A DNA stretch of 64,000 nt from an uncultured Actinomycetes bacterium (lineage in GTDB: Bacteria; Actinomycetota; Thermoleophilia; RBG-16-64-13): positions 800,001 to 864,000 of the forward strand of contig CAWJDT010000001.1 in the NCBI GenBank assembly GCA_963841735.1, written 5' to 3'. Numbering within the stretch: the stretch's first letter is position 1; every line of letters begins with the position of its first letter. This document shows positions 7,636-52,403 of the stretch, one piece after another. Position numbers and translations under genes: made by a program. Below the pieces are notes generated by a model. The model worked only from the letters and a program-made list of their open reading frames with translations. It made no database searches and had not been told where the DNA came from.

Positions 7636-8997
7636 CTACGCGCCCCCGGTGTCCTCCTTGCGGAGGTCGACCACTCGCTGAGCTTTGCCCTCGCTGCGCT
7701 CGATGGAGCCAGGTTCCTTGAAGGTCACCTTGGTATTGATGCCGATGATGTCCTTGATGTTCTTCTGGATGTCGCCCTTGAGAGCCACCAGAACATCGTG
7801 TTCGGTGAATGTCGTGACGTCGTCAAGAGAGAGCATGGCCTCCGAGACCTCTTTGTGGAGGCTGGGTTTGATCTCCACCTGCACTTCCATGTTGTCCATG
7901 GCGCCCTTGCGGGTGACGATGAGACGGTAGTGAGGCTCCACCTGGGGCGACATCAACAGCACCGACTCAACCTGGCTGGGGAACACGTTGACTCCGCGGA
8001 TGATGAGCATGTCGTCGGTGCGGCCCGAGACGCGGGCCATGCGCACGGTGGTGCGTCCGCAGATGCAGGGCTCGGGGTTCAGAGTGGTGATGTCGCCCGT
8101 GCGGTAGCGGATAAGGGGGAAGGCTTCCTTGGTGAGGGTGGTGAACACCAACTCGCCCTGCTGCCCGTAGGGAAGCACCTCGCCGGTGTCCGGGCTGATG
8201 ATCTCGGGGAGGAAGTGGTCTTCGTTGATATGCAGGCCGGACTGGGCCTCCACGCACTCACACGAAACGCCGGGGCCCACGATCTCGCTCAGACCGTAGA
8301 TGTCGCAGGCTTTGATGTTCCACTTGGCCTCGATGTCCCTGCGCATGGCTTCCGACCAGGGTTCGGCTCCGAACACCCCTACCTTGAGCGGCAGTTTGGT
8401 GACATCCATGCCCACCTGCTGGGCCACGTCCCATAGGTAGATGGCGAAGCTGGGAGTGCAACAGATGACAGTGGTGCCGAAGTCCTGCATGAGCATGAGT
8501 TGCCGCTGGGTGTTGCTGCCCGAGATAGGGATGACCGACGCGCCCAGTGTCTCAGCTCCGTAGTGCATGCCCAGGCCGCCCGTGAAGAGGCCGTAGCCGT
8601 AGGCCACCTGGACGACGTCCTCGTCGGAGGCGCCGACGCCGGCCAGCGTGCGGGCCGCGACGTGGGCCCACATGTCGATGTCGTTCTGGGTGTAGCCAAC
8701 AGTTGTCGGCTTGCCTGTGGTGCCTGACGAAGCGTGGATGCGCACCACTTCTTTGAGCGGGGTGGCGAACATCTTGAACGGGTAGTTGTCGCGCAGGTTG
8801 TACTTGCGGGTGAAGGGGAGACGGGTGAGGTCGTCCAGCCCGCGGACGGATTCGGGGGCGATTCCGGCCTTATCGAGCAGGTCTCGATAGAAGGGCACCT
8901 TGTCGTAGACCCTCTTTACCAGGGCGCTCAGGCGCTCGCCCTGCAGCTGCCTCATGTCGTCCCGGCTCATGCACTCGTGTTCACGGTCGAAGATCAC
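7636..8997 (-). CDS. paaK: Phenylacetate--CoA ligase family protein
   Basis: [50 protein letters not shown]. Confidence 0.9.
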
Positions 8998-9072
8998 GGT
9001 TGACTCCCCTTATACTCGCGCACCCTACCGGGCGATGGTAGCACGGGACCGGAGTCTCACTCACTGTGACTA

Positions 9073-9531
9073 CCGGCTCAGGCCGGTGCCTGCCGACTCG
9101 GCACTCGCCGGGGTTGCCCTTTGCTTCGCTCGGGCGGCAAAAGCCTCGCTGGCAGACACCGACCTGAGCCGGCACCCTCCGCCCAGCGGCGCCGGTCCCG
9201 CGCTTCCCGCGCGGTAGATGGTTTTCGGTGAGGGGTGCCTGCCGACTCGGCACTCGCCGGGGTTGCCCTTTGCTTCGCTCGGGCGGCAAAAGCCTCGCTG
9301 GCAGACACCGACCTGAGCCGGCACCCTCCGCCCAGCGCGCCAGTCCCGTGCTTCCAGCACGGTAGATGGTTTTCGGTGAGGGGTGCCTGCCGACTCGGCA
9401 CTCGCCGGGGTTGCCCTTTGCTTCGCTCGGGCGGCAAAAGCCTCGCTGGCAGACACCGACCTGAGCCGGCACCCTCCGCCCAGCGGCGCCGGTCCCGCGC
9501 TTCCCGCATGGTAGCTGTTCTCTCTGAGGGG
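9073..9531. repeat. Three tandem ~148-bp GC-rich palindromic repeats
   Basis: Units starting GTGCCTGCCGACTCGGCACTCGCC at 9086, 9235 and 9383 are near-identical; the first copy folds CCGGCTCAGG (9073) onto CCTGAGCCGG (9163-9172). Confidence 0.92.
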
Positions 9532-9609
9532 GCTTCTCCGCACACGCGGCTGCTTGTCAACCCAAGGTCTGATTACAGGGCGACGTCTATTCGTGTGACC
9601 CTGGCGACG

Positions 9610-10575
9610 ATGGACACGCCGCCAAGACTGCTCGATCAAATGCGCGAGGCACTACATGCGCGGCACTACAGCCTCCGCACAGAACGGGCCTACTGCGCCT
9701 GGGTGAGGCGCTTCATCTACTTCCACCACGTCCGCCATCCAGGTGAGATGGGGGGCCCGGAGATCAACGCCTTTCTCACTCACCTCGCGGTGGCGGAGAA
9801 CGTGAGCGCTTCGACGCAGAACCAGGCGCTGGCGGCGCTGCTCTTCCTGTACCGGCACGTACTAGACCGCGAAGTGGGCGACTTGGACGGAGTAATCCGT
9901 GCCAGGCACAGTGCCAAGGTCCCGGTGGTGATGACTCGCACCGAAGTGCGGGAGGTGCTTGCTCAACTCGCGGGCGACAAGTGGCTCATCGCCTCTCTAC
10001 TCTATGGCTGCGGGCTGCGACTACTGGAGTGCCTCCGGCTCCGGGTCAAGGACATCGACTTCTCCCGGGGCGAGATCACAGTGCACGATGGCAAGGGCGG
10101 GAAGGATCGTGTCACCATGTTGCCCGCGTCACTTGCCGATCCGTTGCAGCATCACCTTGTCTCGGTCAAGACGATCCACCAGGCCGATCTGGCCGACGGC
10201 TGGGGTCGCGTGCTCCTTCCTAACGCTCTTGATCGGAAGTACCCGAACGTGCCGGCCGACTGGCGCTGGCAGTGGGTCTTTCCCCAGGCCAACCGCTGGA
10301 AGAACAGCAGAACTGGGGAGGAAGGGCGGCATCATGTTCACGAGACCCTTGTTCAGCGCGCGGTGAAGGAGGCCGTAAGTCGCGCCGGTGTTGTCAAGCA
10401 CGTGGGGTGCCACACCTTCCGACACTCCTTCGCTACTCATCTCCTGGACGCGGGTTACGACATCCGCACGATCCAGGAACTCCTGGGCCACAAGGACGTT
10501 CGCACCACCATGATCTACACCCATGTGCTCAACCGCGGCGGCCAGGGCGTCCGCAGCCCGCTTGACTCCCTGTAG
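9610..10575 (+). CDS. intI: Integron integrase
   Basis: [49 protein letters not shown], plus the integron-specific insert '[20 protein letters not shown]...WQWVFP'; start ATG 9610 (the longer ORF just runs through the repeats). Confidence 0.97.
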
Positions 10576-10677
10576 GGCGGGCATATACAGATGGGATGAG
10601 AAGGCCGACCTCCCCCGGAGTACCGTGAGGTCCCCAATCAGAGTCGGGCTCGTGGGCCCAAATGAAGGAGGCCAGCC

Positions 10678-11760
10678 ATGTGCGATGCTAGCACCACCGA
10701 GCAAGCGAAGGTGACCGTGGGTCTCGATCTGAGCGACCGTTGTTGTCAGATCTGTGTGCTCGACGAAGCGGGCGAGGTGACCGAGGAGGGCCGGGTGACG
10801 ACCAAGCCGGAAGCCTTGCGTCGCCGCTTCTCCGGGGCGGATCCGCTACGCATCGTGATCGAGGCCGGCACCCACTCCCCCTGGGTTAGCCGTCTGCTTT
10901 CCGAACTTGGACACGACGTTGTCGTGGCCAATCCCCGCAAGCTCCGCTTCATCTACCAGAACGACTCGAAGTCAGACCGGGTGGACGCCGAGTACCTGGC
11001 CCGGGTCGGTCGTCTGGACCCGGAGCTGCTGGCCCCCCTCACCCATCGGAGAGCCGAGACCCAGTCCGACCTCGCGCTTGTGCGCAGTCGCAATGCCCTG
11101 GTCAGGGCTCGCACCCGTCTGATCAGTCATGCCCGCGGCTGCACGAAGTCCTTGGGCAGCCGCCTGCCCACCTGCGCGAGCGACGTCTTTGCCCAAAAGG
11201 CCGGGCCGTGTGTCCCCGAGGAGCTTGCTCCCGCCCTGGCTCCGGTCCTCACCGTCATCCAGAACATCTCCGATGAGATCCGCGCTCTCGATCAGAAGAT
11301 CGAAGACATGGCCAAGGAGCGCTACCCAGAGACCGCGCTTCTCTCCCAGGTGCCCGGCGTGGGCACGCTTACGGCCACAGTCTATGTCCTTACCGTGGAA
11401 GATCCCGAGCGCTTCCCCAAGTGCCGCTCGGTGGGCTCGTATCTCGGCCTCAGGCCCCGGCAGGCAAGCTCCGGTTCCCTGGAGCCTCAGCTGCGCATCA
11501 CCAAAGCCGGGGACGAGCACCTGCGCTGGCTCCTCGTGAGCGCCGCCCACTACATCCTCGGGCCCTTCGGCCCGGACTCGGATCTCAGGCGTTGGGGTCT
11601 TGCCTTGGCCGCGCAGGGCGGCAAGCGGGGCAAGAAGCGAGCGGTAGTGGCGGTGGCCCGCAAGCTCTCGGTGCTCCTCCTGCACCTCTGGAGGACCGGT
11701 GAGGTCTACGAGCCACTGCGCAACGTCCGGCTCCGCGGCGAGACTGCGCCCACCACCTAG
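10678..11760 (+). CDS. IS110 family transposase/recombinase
   Basis: DEDD residues in GLDLS, IEAG, KSDRVDA; C-terminal SSG serine motif; AVVAVARKL. Confidence 0.95.
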   Translation: MCDASTTEQAKVTVGLDLSDRCCQICVLDEAGEVTEEGRVTTKPEALRRRFSGADPLRIVIEAGTHSPWVSRLLSELGHDVVVANPRKLRFIYQNDSKSDRVDAEYLARVGRLDPELLAPLTHRRAETQSDLALVRSRNALVRARTRLISHARGCTKSLGSRLPTCASDVFAQKAGPCVPEELAPALAPVLTVIQNISDEIRALDQKIEDMAKERYPETALLSQVPGVGTLTATVYVLTVEDPERFPKCRSVGSYLGLRPRQASSGSLEPQLRITKAGDEHLRWLLVSAAHYILGPFGPDSDLRRWGLALAAQGGKRGKKRAVVAVARKLSVLLLHLWRTGEVYEPLRNVRLRGETAPTT

Positions 11761-12100
11761 GAGCGGTGAAGATGAGAGATGCCGACGGGAAGGATCGATA
11801 ACCAAGGAAGACCGGCGGGTGAACCCATCGCAGGAGACCAGCAAAAAGACCAACCGCCCAGGGTGAAAGCGACTGCGCACACAGACTCGGCCGTACAGAA
11901 CGACACCAACCCGGTGCCGTCCCCAAGGCCGCTATACAGATAGCAGCGCTTCCCCCCGGCCGGACCCCAACGTGCACCGGGTCCCGCCATAGGTTCCCGA
12001 CAAAAAGTGCGAATGGAAGCGTGGCCGTGGTCTTGGCTCTTCGCGGCGGAAGAGGGATGATAGAAACCGAGCAGAGGAGGAAGAAGCAACCCAAGAATCG
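11761..12100 (+). ncRNA. Putative bridge/seek RNA region of IS element A (boundaries approximate)
   Basis: CAGACT (11882) is the reverse complement of core plus right flank; CGGCC/GGCCG stem; TATACAG (11933) equals left flank plus core; ATGGAAG (12013) equals the IS right end. Confidence 0.6.
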
Positions 12101-12130
12101 CTCTTGACACCGGCCGGCTTCTCATGGAAG

Positions 12131-12284
12131 TCTGCATAACCCCAAGACCGCGCGGGCGTCTTGGGTTCAGAAACCGCTCGGTATGCCGACCAGGGGGGCT
12201 GTCTTGAGAATCGCAGCCGGAGTTATGCAGACAACCTGGTGCTGCGACGGTTGAGTTGGGCAGACTGGATAAGCATTGTTAGAC
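12131..12284 (+). other. Candidate attI region; crossover core GTTAGAC at 12278-12284
   Basis: GTTAGACAC (12278) is the exact complement of GTGTCTAAC (13128) ending cassette 1; no attC-type hairpin immediately upstream; repeated TATRC(A/C)GAC-like motifs. Confidence 0.7.
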
Positions 12285-12311
12285 ACAGACGCTGGGAGGC
12301 GCGCGGCGCGA

Positions 12312-13121
12312 ATGTCGTGGATGAGCGACAGCGGCACCGAGTACAGACTGTGCTTGCTCGACACAAACGCCTTGAGCAACATCGTCGAGCATCGCGACAC
12401 CTTTGGGCACGCTTTCATCGAGCGGTTTCCCCCAAGTGATTGGGCGCCATGCTGGACAATCTACAACGTCATCGAATTGCGTCGTGCCCCAGAGCATCTA
12501 CGACTATACGATGCCTGGCTCGACTTCTTCTCAAGGTATCCGAGCTTCCTTCTTGAGCCATATTCGCGCATCGTGGCGGCAGAGGTGGCGGCCTATCACC
12601 ACTATCCAGCTGGACCTCCGTTGCTCAACGCCTTCACTCTGGCTGGGTCCGAAGACAGGCACTTCCTGCGGCCGTTCCTAGAGAAGCTCTTTGTGCAGGA
12701 CTGGATGATCGAGCTTGAGGCCGGGTGGCGCGACGATGAGAATGACACCCTCCGGGAGTGGGTCTCACGTTCGAACGACGGTCGCAAAGCTGACCAGTAC
12801 GTCGCCGAGTCAGTGGTTGTTCACTTGGCCGAGAATCACCAATCTTGGACGGCGGGACTCCTGAACTCGGGTAGCACACTGGACATAAACCGATTCCCTG
12901 CGCTGCAGGCTATGCTGTATTCGCAGTTCTATCGTATTCGTGAGCCGGGGCGGGTTCATGAGGCAAGCGACGTTACGGACGTTCGGATCATGGCGGCGGC
13001 GCCCTATATGGAGGCGGTTGTCACGGAGAGGTTCCAGGCAGAGGTCTTTCGCAAGGCAAAGAGAGCGCTTTCGTCGATAGCACAGCTTGATGTCGTGAGG
13101 GTTGGTGAGTTGTGTGGCTGA
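12312..13121 (+). CDS. Gene cassette 1: PIN-like domain protein
   Basis: N-terminal LLDTNALS, mid-protein E, C-terminal DVTDVRIMAAAPYMEAVVTE; start ATG 12312 or 12321; bounded by attI and attC1. Confidence 0.6.
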   Translation: MSWMSDSGTEYRLCLLDTNALSNIVEHRDTFGHAFIERFPPSDWAPCWTIYNVIELRRAPEHLRLYDAWLDFFSRYPSFLLEPYSRIVAAEVAAYHHYPAGPPLLNAFTLAGSEDRHFLRPFLEKLFVQDWMIELEAGWRDDENDTLREWVSRSNDGRKADQYVAESVVVHLAENHQSWTAGLLNSGSTLDINRFPALQAMLYSQFYRIREPGRVHEASDVTDVRIMAAAPYMEAVVTERFQAEVFRKAKRALSSIAQLDVVRVGELCG

Positions 13122-13129
13122 CGCTTCGT

Positions 13130-13220
13130 GTCTAACAAGTGCGTGCAACCGACACCGGCGTTGTCTGCTGCATGGAGTACCATGGCCAACGGGCGCGGCT
13201 GACGCACTAGAACGTTAGCG
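13130..13220 (+). other. attC site 1 (intact)
   Basis: R'' GTCTAAC 13130; arm AGTGCGT(G)CAACCG pairs with CGGCTGACGCACT leaving an extrahelical G; R' GTTAGCG 13214. Confidence 0.93.
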
Positions 13221-13255
13221 TTACAAGGGAGAGTGGGGTTCTGGTGGGGGGTCGA

Positions 13256-14323
13256 ATGATCAAGCCGAAGTCGTACATCGTAGGGTTGGGTCTGTTGCTG
13301 ACCTTGGGGGCGGCAGTCGACGGTTGCTCAGGGCGTTCCTCCGATCAAGTCACTTTCGAGAGCGAATACGTTTCTCTGCAACTGCCCGACTCGTTCGTCG
13401 GAGGCGATCCAGCGGATCCGAATGTGATGGCCGCGCTCAAGAAGCATGCCGAGAAGAACCCTGATTCCGAGACCCGTGCCGACCTCAAGTCGTACCTGGA
13501 CGGACTAGAGAGTGACATCCGAAGGGACGAGGAGTACCACTTCGTAAGGAATGGCCCTCTTCTTCTCCTCTGGGGTGAGCCGGATAAGGACGGCTCCATG
13601 GCGGAGGTCTACGTGTCGCGCGTTCTCGTGCAGAACATACTCCCGCTGACCGACGGTGACTCCTCAATGGAAGCCCTCGTGAAGGGTTTGAACTTCTGGC
13701 CAGAGTCAGAGTGGTACATCGATAATCTCACCGCTGATGCTGCGGAGGTGTTGCTCTACCATGTCAAAGAGAGTCCCGACGACATGACGGTGCGCGAACA
13801 TCATGTGTTCAAGGCCACGGCTGAGTATGTCTACGAGTTCACCTACGTCTACTACGACGAGATTTCGGCAGACCTGGACTCTGTCTTCGCCTCAAGTGCC
13901 GACACTGCTACCGTCAAGTGGCCCTACAACTCACAGAAGCAGTCTGTGGACCAGAAGGCCTACCGGCAGGATGGGGACTGCGAGTCTCTCGTCGAGAAGG
14001 CAAAGTACGCTCTAGAAAAGGCATACAAGGAACTGGGGACATGCGACCCCGGGGTGGTGACACCCAAGGTACTGAGCGAGATCGAGCCGGGTGTTGTCTT
14101 CATCGTCGTCGAGGACGCTGAAGCTGCACTTGCACCCGAAGCTGCAACCGTGCGGAATGAGGTCGCCTACTGGGGCGATGCTGGGACCTATACGGTTGGT
14201 TCGTGCTCCGAGTCTGGCAAGACGTACGGCGTATTCCATGATATGGCGGACCCTGGATGGTATCGAGTTTCCGAAGGCGGTCAGCCGGGCTCCAGGAGAT
14301 ATGAGATACCGACAGACAAGTAG
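13256..14323 (+). CDS. Gene cassette 2: predicted lipoprotein of unknown function
   Basis: Signal peptide ending AVDG-C; cassette bounded by GTTAGCGTT (13214) and its complement AACGCTAAC (14343). Confidence 0.7.
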   Translation: MIKPKSYIVGLGLLLTLGAAVDGCSGRSSDQVTFESEYVSLQLPDSFVGGDPADPNVMAALKKHAEKNPDSETRADLKSYLDGLESDIRRDEEYHFVRNGPLLLLWGEPDKDGSMAEVYVSRVLVQNILPLTDGDSSMEALVKGLNFWPESEWYIDNLTADAAEVLLYHVKESPDDMTVREHHVFKATAEYVYEFTYVYYDEISADLDSVFASSADTATVKWPYNSQKQSVDQKAYRQDGDCESLVEKAKYALEKAYKELGTCDPGVVTPKVLSEIEPGVVFIVVEDAEAALAPEAATVRNEVAYWGDAGTYTVGSCSESGKTYGVFHDMADPGWYRVSEGGQPGSRRYEIPTDK

Positions 14324-14422
14324 CCGCCCGAAAGTGAGACTGAACGCTAACAAGATGGCATGAAAAGGACGCTGCGCCGACACTGTCGTTGTGAGGAGCA
14401 ACGATAGGAAGGAGAAGCGCCG

Positions 14423-15415
14423 ATGCCAACTTACTACCTGGGCCTCGATGTCCACAAGGTCCGCACCCAGTACTGTCTGATGGATCTGGGCGGTGAGATC
14501 CTATCCGAGGGCAATGTCCCCACCGAAGAAGCCGCGTCTCTGGTGTCCGAGATCGATTCTGCCGTGGTGCTGGAGGCCACAGGCAGCTGGCACGCCACCT
14601 ACGACGCGCTCGTCGCCACCGGAGCCGCTGTCAAGCTGGCACACCCCGCCCGCATCAAGGCCATCGCCTCCGCTAAGGTCAAGACCGACAAGATCGACGC
14701 CCGCATCCTGGCGCATCTGTTGCGTGCTGATCTCATCCCCGAGGCCTGGGCACCTCCCACTTCAGTGCGGGAACTTAGGGACCTGGTGCGGCTTCGTTGG
14801 CGCTTCATCTCCCAGCGCACCACTGCCAAGAACCGCATCACCAACCTGCTGGCCCGCGAGAACCTGCGCTTCGCCGGCACCGATCTGTTCGGCAAGAGTG
14901 GCAGGAAGTGGCTGGAGGCGCTGGATCTGCGGGCACACACCCGGAGTCTCATCGCCTTGCTGCTCGTCTCCATCGAGGAGGCCGATGCCCACGTGGCCGT
15001 TCTCACCTCTCGACTGCATGAGCTGCTCGACCGGGACCCGGACATGGGTCTGCTCATGACCATACCCGGTGTGGGTTTCATCACCGCGGCCACGCTCTCC
15101 GCCGAGGTCGGTGACTGGAGCCGCTTCTCCTCGGCAAGGCAGGTCTCCTGCTACTTCGGCATCATCCCCTCGGTGCGGAGTTCAGGTACTGTGGCCCACT
15201 ACGGACACATCACGCGGGCCGGGAGTCCTCACGCAAGGCGAGCGCTCGTCGAGGCGGCGCACACCGCCAAGAAATTGCCGGGGCCGGTCCGCCACCACTA
15301 CCTCGCTCTAGTCAAGCGTCGCGGCAAGAAGGTCGCCCTCGTCGCCGCAGCCCGTGTGCTGCTGGAACTGTCCTGGACCCTCCTGCACAAGAAGGAGGTG
15401 TTTCAGGCGGCTTAA
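14423..15415 (+). CDS. IS110 family transposase/recombinase
   Basis: LGLDVH, LEATG, KTDKIDA (DEDD); IPGVG; VRSSG; ALVAAAR. Confidence 0.95.
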   Translation: MPTYYLGLDVHKVRTQYCLMDLGGEILSEGNVPTEEAASLVSEIDSAVVLEATGSWHATYDALVATGAAVKLAHPARIKAIASAKVKTDKIDARILAHLLRADLIPEAWAPPTSVRELRDLVRLRWRFISQRTTAKNRITNLLARENLRFAGTDLFGKSGRKWLEALDLRAHTRSLIALLLVSIEEADAHVAVLTSRLHELLDRDPDMGLLMTIPGVGFITAATLSAEVGDWSRFSSARQVSCYFGIIPSVRSSGTVAHYGHITRAGSPHARRALVEAAHTAKKLPGPVRHHYLALVKRRGKKVALVAAARVLLELSWTLLHKKEVFQAA

Positions 15416-15610
15416 GAGGAGAGCCCGTTGCACGCGCTGGGAGCGTGTTCGACTCCCGTTAACAAGATTCGGCCTCCTCACCGCCGCATAGCCCATCTGA
15501 GCGCCTGGATAGATGAGCGCGAATGGAAGCTTGGCCCTCGAAGCCGTTGATGGTGGAAGGCGCGCGTTCGGGGACGGTAGAATCAAGAGCGTGCGAAGCT
15601 CAAGATGAAG
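15416..15610 (+). ncRNA. Putative bridge/seek RNA region of IS element B (boundaries approximate)
   Basis: GTTGCACGCGCT (15427), GGGAG/CTCCC stem, TAACAAG (15460), CCATCT (15493) and ATGGAAG (15523) match the attC target flanks and the IS circle junction. Confidence 0.75.
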
Positions 15611-15736
15611 ACTTGCACTCTGAGTCCTTTTCATGGAAGTGCGTGCAACCGACATCCTTCATTGTCTATCGCATGGAGTACCATGGCCAACGGGCGCGGC
15701 TGACGCGCTAGAACGTTAGCCATACAGGGGGTTCTA

Positions 15737-16480
15737 TTGGACCGAGCTAGGGCGGTTGATCTGTACCTTCAGTGTTGTGGCTTGCAGAATGATCTCGAAC
15801 CGAAGCCCGTGGTCGCCAAGTACACGGAGTTTCTCGACGAAGCAGTTGCCCAGTTGTCGATCAATGACTTCGCAATCAACTCCAAGCAGCATCTGCGGGA
15901 CATAGCCAACTTCGTCAATGAGTTCGCTTTCAACCACCAGAGGCTGCGTGCTTGGGAACGGATACTGCCTGATCTGAGCGACCAGGAACGGCTCGATGTC
16001 CTGATCGAATTCGTCGACCCAATCGTCTATCTCTGCATGGGAGCTCCCGCCGCGTTGAAGGGGCGCCTTCACTTCTCGATGAGGTCACTTCTCTCTTGGC
16101 GAACGAACATCGTGTCCCAGGCTGGACTTACTCTCCGCCGCCTGCGCACTCCACGTTTGAGGGCGCTCGTTCTCAGGCCCGGCTTTGGGATAGCTGGCCA
16201 AGATTGCGGGATTGCCTAGGGGTGCTCAACAACCATGATTTCAAGAGGCGCGTATACGAGTTCAGGGATCACTTCGAACATGGGAGTCCTCGGCTGGTAG
16301 AGTTCGGTGAGAAACTAATGGCGTGGAGAGATGCGCATGGTCGTGTTCTGGGCGTCGAACCAGCCATTTCGCTGGCGAGTGTCGTAGAGTCGCTAGGTCC
16401 GCAGCAGTCGGCCTCAGTTGCTGCCTATGATGCATACGTCGCTTTGGTGGAGGAACAGCATTCGGCGATCCTACAAGAGC
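15737..16480 (+). pseudogene. Gene cassette 3: frameshifted HEPN-like (RxxxxH) protein, 3' end and attC missing
   Basis: Follows R' GTTAGCC (15715); overlapping ORFs 15737..16219 and 16096..; FRDHFEH motif in the second frame. Confidence 0.55.
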
Positions 16481-16732
16481 CAGATCGAGGGCGACGGTAT
16501 CGCGGCTGCCTATGTCGCCCAGAAGGAAGCCATCGGCCAGCAGAATGTGGCGGTGATCAAGCTCATGCAGGAGATAGCAGCCGGCAATATCCAAATCGTG
16601 CCCCAGGTCCTGGTGGGCGGCGAGGGCTCAGCGAGCGGCAACCTGTTCAATGCCTGGCTGTCTCAGATGATCTCTCAGAACGTGCCGAAGACCGAGGCAG
16701 ACAAGAAGGCGGAGAAGAAGGCTGCTGGGTGA
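16481..16732 (+). pseudogene. Orphan 3' fragment of a flotillin/SPFH-like gene
   Basis: IEGDGIAAAYVAQKEAIGQQNVAVIKLMQEIAAGNIQIVPQVLVGG resembles flotillin C-termini; no own start. Confidence 0.5.
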
Positions 16733-16744
16733 TCTGAGGGCTTG

Positions 16745-17431
16745 TCATACCCTGAACGCCGACGGACAAGCATCGGCCAGCAGGCACTCACCGCAGCGGG
16801 GGCGCTTGGCGTCGCAGACCGCCCGGCCGTGTTCTATCAACAGGTAGGTCAGGCGGAACCAGTCTTCTCTCGGGACGATCTCCATCAGCTCGCGCTCGAC
16901 CTTCTCGGAGTCGTGCGACGTGGCTAGGCCCAGTCTTTGGCTTAGGCGGTTGACGTGGGTGTCTACCGCTATGCCTGCGTCCGGGTCTGACGCGTACGCT
17001 TCGGGATGGGCGTTGCCCAGCACTACATTGGCCGTCTTGCGCGCCACTCCCGGCAGGGTCAGCAGGCCGGTCATGCTCGCGGGGATGTCTCCGCCGTAGT
17101 CGGCCAGGATCTTATGGGCGGCACCGATGATGTGCTTCGTCTTGTTTCTGAAGAAGCCTGTGGGCCTGATGTCGGCCTCGAACTCCACCGGGTCGGCACC
17201 GGCGTACGCCTCTACGGTGCGGTACTTCTTGAATAGCTTGGCGGTGACTTGGTTGACCATCTTGTCTGTACACTGGGCCGAGAGGATGACGGCCACCAGT
17301 AGTTCCCAGCCGTTGCCGAAGTCGAGCACTATCCCTGCGCTGGGGTATTCAGCCTTCAGGCGTGCGAGTATTTCCAACGCGTACGCGCGCTTGCCCGCCG
17401 ACGGAGTGCTCTGGACTACCTTCTTCACCAT
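16745..17431 (-). CDS. nth: Endonuclease III
   Basis: LLVAVILSAQCTD, HhH LPGVARKTANVV, VDTHV, [4Fe-4S] C-x6-C-x2-C-x5-C; start ATG 17431. Confidence 0.95.
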   Translation of the reverse strand: MVKKVVQSTPSAGKRAYALEILARLKAEYPSAGIVLDFGNGWELLVAVILSAQCTDKMVNQVTAKLFKKYRTVEAYAGADPVEFEADIRPTGFFRNKTKHIIGAAHKILADYGGDIPASMTGLLTLPGVARKTANVVLGNAHPEAYASDPDAGIAVDTHVNRLSQRLGLATSHDSEKVERELMEIVPREDWFRLTYLLIEHGRAVCDAKRPRCGECLLADACPSAFRV

Positions 17432-17536
17432 GGTCCTCGATCGTGTTTGTACTAGGCTTGTTCGTAATACGCCTTTTTCATCATACGATATCCTTGCAGC
17501 CGTCGACTTCTGCGTGAGGGCGGTAGAATCGTCACT

Positions 17537-52331: not shown

Positions 52332-52403
52332 GCCCCCGTAGCTCAGGGGATAGAGCAGAGGTTTCCTAAACCTTGTGCGGAGGTTCGAGTCCTCCCGGGG
52401 GCA
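52332..52403 (+). tRNA. tRNA-Arg (CCT)
   Basis: Cloverleaf: acceptor GCCCCCG/CGGGGGC, anticodon arm GAGGT-TTCCTAA-ACCTT, T arm GGAGG-TTCGAGT-CCTCC; no encoded CCA. Confidence 0.95.

Follow-up and report, generated by a model that had tools for sequence, protein, structure and literature searches.

A co-oriented chromosomal integron, with two insertion sequences at its recombination sites, in an uncultured actinobacterium

Can an actinobacterial chromosome be the home of a complete integron? The question is raised by a 7.7-kb block in a stretch of 64,000 nucleotides (the window) from the genome of an uncultured Actinomycetes bacterium (assembly GCA_963841735.1, contig CAWJDT010000001.1, positions 800,001 to 864,000). 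The block lies between a paaK-like and an nth-like gene and holds an integron, with an integrase gene (intI), an attI region, cassettes and attC sites. An earlier interpretation made from the letters alone (the sequence-only reading) had described it as a sedentary, inverted integron of an under-sampled lineage. In its accessible text, a survey of complete genomes records no complete integron in Actinobacteria (IntegronFinder 2.0, PMC9024848), and the accessible part of a 2026 study of metagenome-assembled genomes speaks of their 'virtual absence' from Actinomycetota (PMC13323075). The idea has been put forward that such lineages have some obstacle to integrons (PMC4889954, accessible part), and a 2021 review, again as far as its accessible text goes, names Actinobacteriota among the phyla in which integrons were detected (PMC8618304). 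For the integron literature, at least in the accessible text of the first two studies, the lineage is indeed under-sampled. A full-text search found no work that deals with both integrons and attC in Coriobacteriia, and the accessible literature yielded nothing on an integron integrase in Anaerosomatales, OPB41 or Actinomycetota.

In the present study, we examined the parts of this locus, their counterparts in the same genome and in its relatives, and the two insertion sequences (ISs) that interrupt it. We consider it highly probable that the block is a chromosomal integron of the co-oriented ('inverted integrase') type, native to an anaerobe-like lineage of Actinomycetota that lacks WhiB.

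The integrase is intact. Its sequence scores 486 bits against the TIGR02249 model (cut-off 265), with residues 7-321 covering all 315 model positions, and the PF00589 and PF13495 domains are present. Over its full length it can be aligned with chain 2a3v of the solved VchIntIA structure (E 2.6e-87), with one single-residue gap at about residue 196 and no gap across residues 205-245, which we take to be the extra segment specific to IntI proteins. R131, K156, H262, R265, H288 and Y297, presumably the catalytic set of a tyrosine recombinase, are invariant in an alignment of IntI with seven relatives (A1). The gene is read toward the array and shares its strand with both the cassettes and the attC sites, all of which lie downstream (Table 1), as the sequence-only reading had stated.

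The boundaries of the array are those that the definition of an integron asks for. The attI region neighbours intI and has a core of the GTTRRRY type at the first cassette, and the cassette boundaries fall at G/TT (the slash marks the crossover), the start of the cassette being complementary to its own R'' in two pairs. In both pairs, GTTAGACAC (12278-12286) with GTGTCTAAC (13128-13136) and GTTAGCGTT (13214-13222) with AACGCTAAC (14343-14351), the 9-bp complementarity claimed before is exact; neither pair has another occurrence in the 64 kb, where 0.14 and 0.12, respectively, would be expected by chance. The attI boxes ..CAGAC.. and the core ATTGTTNGNC are kept in 11 aligned platforms.

The attC sites have the fold of such sites, with an R''/R' stem, an L''/L' stem and a bulge in L'' (L'' GT[G]CAGC, L' GCTGAC). 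The bottom strand of attC1 folds with -23.8 kcal/mol (z -2.6). Among 53 aligned sites, 89.6% of the cells pair, as against 21-36% with slid partners, and 75 double-sided (compensatory) changes were counted, as against 23 in shuffles; these figures lean toward structure because the alignment was fitted to a covariance model. The two attC sites of the window belong to one family, but are less than near-identical (73/82 positions, 89%). A motif-plus-fold finder of attC sites was abandoned, since its strict form found nothing and its loose form gave many matches on both strands of ordinary genes, and was replaced by two covariance models, R1, built from seven sites of the own genome, and R2, built from the 53 sites. 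The genome-wide search that the sequence-only reading had proposed was made with R1 over the 2.8-Mb assembly, and all 17 matches at E <= 0.1 fell in five integron loci, each downstream and on the strand of intI or of an intI remnant. The window contributed just attC1 and attC2. All sites are of one family with two size classes (about 95 bp and about 65 bp).

How unusual is the orientation? The 80 nearest IntI loci, most of them with 6 kb of upstream flank, were compared for layout. All 45 matches of R1, found in 17 of the 80 loci, each titled as Actinomycetota, are downstream of intI and on its strand. With R2, 36 loci were positive. Of the 38 loci with an Actinomycetota title, 24 are among them, and the remaining 12 carry other titles (Chlorobiaceae, Smithella, Desulfobacteraceae, Planctomycetales, Nitrospiraceae, NC10, Latescibacterota and others); all 101 matches are downstream of intI and 100 of them on its strand, and none was found in the upstream flanks. 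Throughout this integrase group, whatever the phylum, co-orientation is the rule and not an oddity. What the sequence-only reading called 'inverted' is correct for the orientation, but not as something special to this locus.

Table 1. Features of the integron locus (window coordinates) and other integron platforms of the same genome (contig coordinates)
Feature	Position	Strand	Remarks
paaK-like gene	7636-8997	-	Native left flank; open reading frame (ORF); 78-93% identical to the nth neighbour in 4 genus relatives
Tandem repeat, 148-bp unit, 2.9 copies	9085-9514		Tandem Repeats Finder, 96% matches; native DNA upstream of paaK, outside the integron
intI, intact integron integrase, 321 amino acids (aa)	9610-10575	+	TIGR02249, PF00589, PF13495, 2a3v
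IS-A, IS110/IS1111-type, 1540 bp	10591-12130	+	Transposase 10678-11760; 3' non-coding 11761-12130
Putative attI region, 154 bp	12131-12284	+	Core GTTAGAC 12278-12284; predicted crossover G/TT 12278/12279
Cassette 1	12279-13214	+	ORF 12312-13121, 269 aa, no family
attC1	13128-13222	+	R'' GTCTAAC 13130-13136; R' GTTAGCG 13214-13220; model R1 111.9 bits
Cassette 2, coding part, with 5' piece of attC2	13215-14354	+	ORF 13244-14323, 359 aa; lipoprotein-like signal by eye
IS-B, IS1111-type, in attC2	14355-15639	+	Transposase 14423-15415; 3' non-coding 15416-15639 (224 bp)
attC2, 3' piece	15640-15721	+	R' GTTAGCC 15715-15721; model R1 74 bits
Cassette 3 remnant	15716-16468	+	Frameshifted near 16088-16096; cut off about 18 codons before the gene end; no attC
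3' fragment of an unrelated gene, 85 codons	16478-16735	+	Open frame between array and nth
nth-like gene	16745-17434	-	Native right flank; single best match in 16/16 genus genomes
Second intact intI	C6:31559-32503		80% protein identity to the window IntI
Decayed platform (L099)	C5:146174-151751		Truncated intI, IS-A, attI, four attC
Decayed platform (L105)	C1:1356034-1359688		intI stub, IS-A, attI region, three attC
Decayed platform (L104)	C1:402285-403823		intI stub, IS-A, attI region, zero attC matches
Decayed platform (L104)	C1:390278-392191		intI fragment, three attC

Is the host an actinobacterium? The assembly has 8 contigs and 2.8 Mb (89.7% complete), and the locus is 800 kb into a contig of 1.77 Mb, where its flanking genes, left and right, show synteny with four genus relatives. 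Of 61 genomes from the same phylum, 33 have WhiB (PF02467; among them the unpublished G041, G057 and G086); among 14 controls, it was found only in Corynebacterium (C. glutamicum). This pattern points to Actinomycetota as the host phylum; the class appears to be one without WhiB. The actinobacterial chromosome proposed by the sequence-only reading is thus supported by WhiB in the phylum and by the syntenic flanks, and the contig was not placed in a phylum such as Desulfobacterota, the outcome which that reading had named as its own undoing.

The integrase recurs in this class. Counting the own genome, 7 of 41 relatives have it above the cut-off, as do 38 of the 301 class genomes that were sampled. 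Counted by family (E <= 1e-70, own genome excluded), it is present in 9/55 genomes of the own family, 29/55 of a second, sister family and 1/24 of a third, and in none of 166 genomes of nine other families; the class integrases are concentrated in two families. Rarity of integrons in Gram-positives, as the sequence-only reading had it, holds for what is in print, but not for the genomes searched here. The prevalence in the two families was not found in the accessible print, although tables in the supplements of PMC9024848 and PMC13323075 may contain hits in actinobacteria.

The nearest IntI loci in public species genomes are titled Actinomycetes, Actinomycetota, Coriobacteriia, Anaerosomatales or Thermoleophilia bacterium. 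From these titles, the class might be guessed to be Coriobacteriia or one near it. In a midpoint-rooted tree of 74 rows (10 of the 80 loci were dropped for a match below 290 residues or for stops), the window IntI falls in a clade of eight members supported at 100% by the Shimodaira-Hasegawa-like approximate likelihood ratio test (SH-aLRT), comprising four Actinomycetota-titled rows and four untitled rows of the own genome or genus. A second clade holds 31 Actinomycetota-titled rows and three titled Eubacteriales. Over the whole tree, the Actinomycetota label changes 5 times, versus 22.9 times when shuffled, which fits long residence in the phylum better than stray transfer. Intact IntI proteins of the eight-member clade occur in three genus and two family relatives.

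The locus is one of at least six integron-related places in the genome, of which two have an intact integrase and at least four are decayed platforms (Table 1). The second complete integron (C6:24800-32503, L098) repeats the layout and the IS-A insertion seen here. By eye, its array holds six cassettes (5 attC matches), which look like toxin-antitoxin pairs plus a TPR-like protein, and seems to end at the tail of an IS30-type transposase gene.

The position between paaK and nth is not shared within the genus. In three relatives (L101, L102 and L103), these two genes are adjacent, 115-150 bp apart; in the fourth (G004, L100), another insert, of 3.2 kb, separates them, and a single copy of the 148-bp unit adjoins paaK (L100:6082-6236). 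As none of the four relatives examined has an integron at this place, the integron is taken to be an insertion special to the own genome. Three genus relatives have an intact intI (G001, G012 and G013), and each of them carries it on another contig than nth. The word 'sedentary' can therefore be kept only in part. The integron is chromosomal and, two ISs aside, has no mobility genes, but its position is shared by 0/4 relatives and its array of three cassettes and two attC sites is far from a large one (tens of cassettes).

The cassettes themselves say little about function. The proteins of cassettes 1 and 2 have no Pfam, NCBIfam or PADLOC family; an NCBIfam match that would make cassette 1 an amidotransferase was disregarded (19 bits, cut-off 309), and in a protein atlas cassette 1 falls in 'hypothetical' clusters with a weak PIN lead. 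The GC fraction of the cassettes is 0.57-0.61, versus 0.63 for the genome. For cassette 3, the only relative found (P0001, 262 aa) matches with residues 1-117 in one frame and 121-244 in another, a frameshift that could be an assembly error. Cassette 1 occurs also at the first place of the C5 platform, 99.8% identical. As this likeness stops at G/TT and the attI regions of the two platforms share only about 90% identity, cassette 1 appears to have moved as a cassette, and the system would have been active not long ago; insertion and excision of cassettes by IntI are suggested indirectly by this comparison of two platforms.

Short contigs of two wetland metagenome runs (X1 and X3) match parts of cassette 2 (13502-14115) with 1-2 differences per 151-173 bases. 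The depth over the attC2 region is by far the highest of the stretch, and the run shares are small. Cassette 2 and the attC family may circulate in wetland-type habitats, which we regard as a lead only.

Both ISs of the locus have transposases of the DEDD type with a C-terminal domain of the IS110 type (PF01548 and PF02371), scoring 218 bits (IS-A) and 250 bits (IS-B) against NF033542 (cut-off 140). In the accessible text of Siddiquee et al. (2024, PMC11187229), the marks of IS1111 elements are sub-terminal inverted repeats of 11-13 bp and a longer non-coding region after the transposase gene. IS-A, whose ends are uncertain by 2 nt (AG at both junctions), has 370 bp after the transposase gene and an imperfect sub-terminal inverted repeat (ATGAGAAG plus an offset CCG). 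IS-B, with ends uncertain by 3 nt (AAG at both junctions), has a perfect 12-bp sub-terminal inverted repeat, CATGAAAAGGAC.

IS-A is present in five copies in the genome, 99.9-100% identical, all inserted at GCATATACAG/TCTG(C/T)ATA (the slash marks the insertion point) and all starting 15 bp past the stop codon of intI or of its remnant. The site on the intI side of attI is occupied in every one of the five platforms that keep it; in the related locus L018, the target GCATATACAG/TCTG is kept but empty. In our own comparison of the sequences, the target box looks like the box beside the attI core in inverted form. The non-coding region of IS-A contains guide-like matches at 11933-11941 and 12013-12019, including TATACAGAT, which equals the left junction, and ATGGAAG. 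The match to the right flank is only 6 nt long (TACAGA), exact for the C6 target and with one mismatch for the window. Since the DNA beside the five copies has diverged much further than the copies themselves, their insertions appear to be separate events. Relatives of IS-A with 67-84% nucleotide identity in other genomes of the family have other targets, with no intI remnant at the left in 6/6 readable flanks; homing on integrons would thus be no trait of the wider IS lineage, but a recent retargeting. The insertion points of these relatives (L107-L112, in G355, G271, G303, G141, G233 and G312) follow ..TAGCAG, ..TAACAG or ..TTGCAG, at non-integron sites, so that targets have changed within a single IS lineage.

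IS-B is present in a single copy and its transposase has at most 40% identity to anything in a plasmid collection. It interrupts attC2 with 1.29 kb after CGCTAACAAG, that is, just after R'' and between R'' and L''; the 5' piece of attC2 has R'' (CGCTAAC) at 14345-14351, followed by AAG. The same place and orientation in attC were found in 3/3 relatives seen, the site being ..CTAACAAG/IS in the window and L018 and ..CTGACAAG/IS in L090. The L018 transposase is 91.5% identical to that of IS-B and lies at ..TTCTAACAAG/ of another attC. The non-coding region of IS-B contains GTTGCACGC (15427-15435), the reverse complement of the right target flank, TAACAAGAT (15460-15468), equal to the left junction, and ATGGAAG (15523-15529), equal to its own right end. 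In L090, where the transposase is 73.5% identical, the element stands at ..CTGACAAG/CGCATC.. and its non-coding region holds GATGCG, which suggests that the guide-like stretch and the target change together. As the non-coding stretches of both elements match their target flanks in the manner of the seekRNA or bridge RNA of IS1111/IS110 elements, homing is most likely guided by RNA.

Other explanations of the locus have to be weighed against a native chromosomal integron. A foreign integron, for example from Desulfobacterota or Chlorobiota, that was wrongly joined or binned would make the actinobacterial host an artefact; IntI relatives of 65-77% identity are indeed found in many phyla, and three sequencing runs gave no check of the assembly. 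A stray piece of DNA would hardly lie so deep inside a 1.77-Mb contig with both flanks syntenic with four genus relatives, share its attC family and IS-A with five further loci on contigs C1, C5 and C6, and have intact IntI of the same clade in genus and family relatives, and we find this explanation barely credible. A more serious alternative is that the integron is not a long-term resident but a mobile one, recently acquired on a transposon, a plasmid or an integrative element. The empty paaK-nth site of all four relatives, the different place of intI in G001, G012 and G013, the several platforms per genome, the short array and the lower GC of the cassettes are what such a history would leave. 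Yet no gene for transposition, conjugation or plasmid functions was found in the 7.7 kb apart from the two ISs, IntI groups by host lineage, the narrow model R1 was matched at Actinomycetota-titled loci only, and the frequency of the integrase in the own and sister families fits long residence together with movement inside the chromosome. Recent acquisition is, in our judgement, rather unlikely.

The five copies of IS-A might, in turn, reflect segmental duplication of a single intI-IS-attI block rather than homing on a site. The window and the C5 platform do share cassette 1, with attI regions about 90% identical. Duplication would not explain IS copies that are nearly identical between flanks that are far more diverged, two intact IntI proteins that are only 80% identical, or attI regions of the C6 platform and of the platform at C1:403k that differ widely from that of the window; nor would it explain the preserved, unoccupied target in L018 and the copy of the left junction in the non-coding region of the IS. 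We therefore hold duplication to be quite improbable, and site-specific homing of IS-A into platforms of a resident integron system is the explanation that we follow below.

What was observed above covers which parts there are, in what order and on which strand they lie, to which families they belong, how they are distributed among genomes and where the ISs insert. From this, the working of a native integron at this place can be pictured as follows. The attI region, starting 15 bp past the stop codon of intI, would receive cassettes at G/TT of GTTAGAC (12278/12279). IntI would fold and recombine the bottom strand of attC with attI at G/TT, as in other integrons, so that cassettes would be stacked on the strand of intI, each ended by a folded attC with its L'' bulge. 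The cassettes may be transcribed by read-through from intI or from attI. Damage would have come later, with IS-A between intI and attI, IS-B in attC2, and the frameshift and truncation of the last cassette; IS-B would keep attC2 from folding as one site.

Several points count against this picture. The working of IntI, the route of cassette transcription and the making of guide RNAs from the non-coding parts of the ISs are all inferred from the sequences. A scan for promoters and terminators near intI and attI gave three promoter-like sites, versus 1.5 expected, none of them well placed, and no promoter-like site for intI or the cassettes was found on the + strand near attI. The bulged base of L'' is a C on the bottom strand, and in canonical attC sites it is a G. 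WhiB was found in none of five genomes of the own class (the own genome, 89.7% complete, and four class-mates), and the call of the phylum accordingly rests on kinship labels and on WhiB elsewhere in the phylum. Three sequencing runs contained 0.05-0.06 of the sampled words and give the assembly of the locus no read support. Lastly, four of the six platforms are without an intact intI and every platform that keeps the IS-A site has IS-A there, so the system may be decaying rather than working.

The run contigs that match the stretch are short and come from other organisms. In run X1, a contig that joins 8996 to 16792 resembles the empty paaK-nth site of a relative, with only 29 letters on one side, and was set aside as too weak to use.

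A motif, ..CCAAGGTCYGrT.., stands at 9545-9570, about 45-60 nt 5' of the intI start, and also in L018, L019 and L023. Common to several integrons of the IntI clade, it may be a promoter or an operator.

To a broader account we give about an even chance. By this account, integrons are old and common in two environmental families of an actinobacterial class without WhiB, about half of the genomes of one family having an integrase, and IS-A, retargeted through its guide RNA, has specialised on the conserved box between intI and attI. It would have filled every platform of the own genome that keeps the box, acting as a parasite by which integrase and array are uncoupled, or else as a switch of cassette expression.

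The surroundings of the integron bear other traces of insertion. The flanks are those named by the sequence-only reading, as both genes adjoin the block; the names paaK and nth were read by eye from the translations. The 148-bp unit on the paaK side has no further copy in the own genome and no match in Rfam; read in the sense of paaK, its fold is moderately better than that of shuffled sequences (z -2.1). On the nth side, the gene fragment at the end of the array has no Pfam match, no paralogue in the genome and no counterpart at the locus in the four relatives; a guess that it is the tail of a flotillin-like gene found no support from Pfam or from a paralogue in the genome. An Rfam search of the whole window gave nothing in the integron locus, the sole match being a tRNA at 52332. 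To the left of paaK, the segment 1672-7608 contains, by eye, a response regulator, a histidine kinase, a DedA-like protein and a P-type ATPase of 879 aa, between the gene at 604-1566 and paaK. As that gene directly adjoins paaK in the four genus relatives, the segment appears to be a second insertion, of about 6 kb, in the same hotspot.

The interest of the locus lies not in the kind of element, which is already known, but in its host lineage, its prevalence in two families and the two ISs aimed at integron sites. With its relatives, it represents complete integrons in Actinomycetota, having an intact IntI, an attI and a lineage-specific attC family, and concentrated in two families. If integrons are truly old and common there, this contradicts the printed rule that Actinobacteria have no complete integrons. 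The locus offers a concrete system in which to ask about integron recombination in a cell of the Gram-positive type, and IS-A and IS-B offer natural cases of elements, most likely guided by RNA, that are aimed at integron sites.

Among known systems, the nearest in layout is the inverted integron-integrase group of chromosomal integrons, whose members include the Treponema denticola type. The window integron resembles it in that intI is upstream of the attC sites and on the same strand, attI is at the 3' end of intI and the array is chromosomal; the same layout occurs also in relatives of this IntI from Chlorobiota, Thermodesulfobacteriota, Planctomycetota and other groups. It differs in its host, Actinomycetota, and in its own attC family, and the likeness is one of layout, the tree being made of the 74 nearest rows. 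The group was named, and in the accessible text found to be paraphyletic, by Cury et al. (2016, PMC4889954).

IS-B has its counterpart in the IS1111-attC group of Proteobacteria (ISPst6, ISKpn4; Tetu and Holmes 2008 and Post and Hall 2009, as cited in the accessible part of PMC11187229). As far as the group is described there, IS-B shares with it the DEDD transposase, the 12-bp repeat, the non-coding region after the transposase gene, the end of attC just after R'' and the segments matching the flanks. It differs in the host phylum, and the likeness is one of features, not of transposase kinship to ISPst6 or ISKpn4. IS-A differs from the described group in its target, which is the intI-attI junction and not attC; no description of this junction as an IS target was found in the accessible literature. 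Group IIC-attC introns are mobile retroelements that home on attC, according to the accessible text of PMC3001079. They share the homing on attC with IS-B, but are retroelements and not ISs with a DEDD transposase, and none was seen here.

The sedentary chromosomal integrons of Vibrio and Xanthomonas have tens to hundreds of cassettes at a conserved position of the chromosome. Unlike these, the integrons of the present genome have three and six cassettes, a position not kept in the genus, several platforms and the reversed orientation. Like them, they are chromosomal, seem to have attC sites more alike within than between genomes and, by eye in the second platform, have cassettes that look like the toxin-antitoxin kind.

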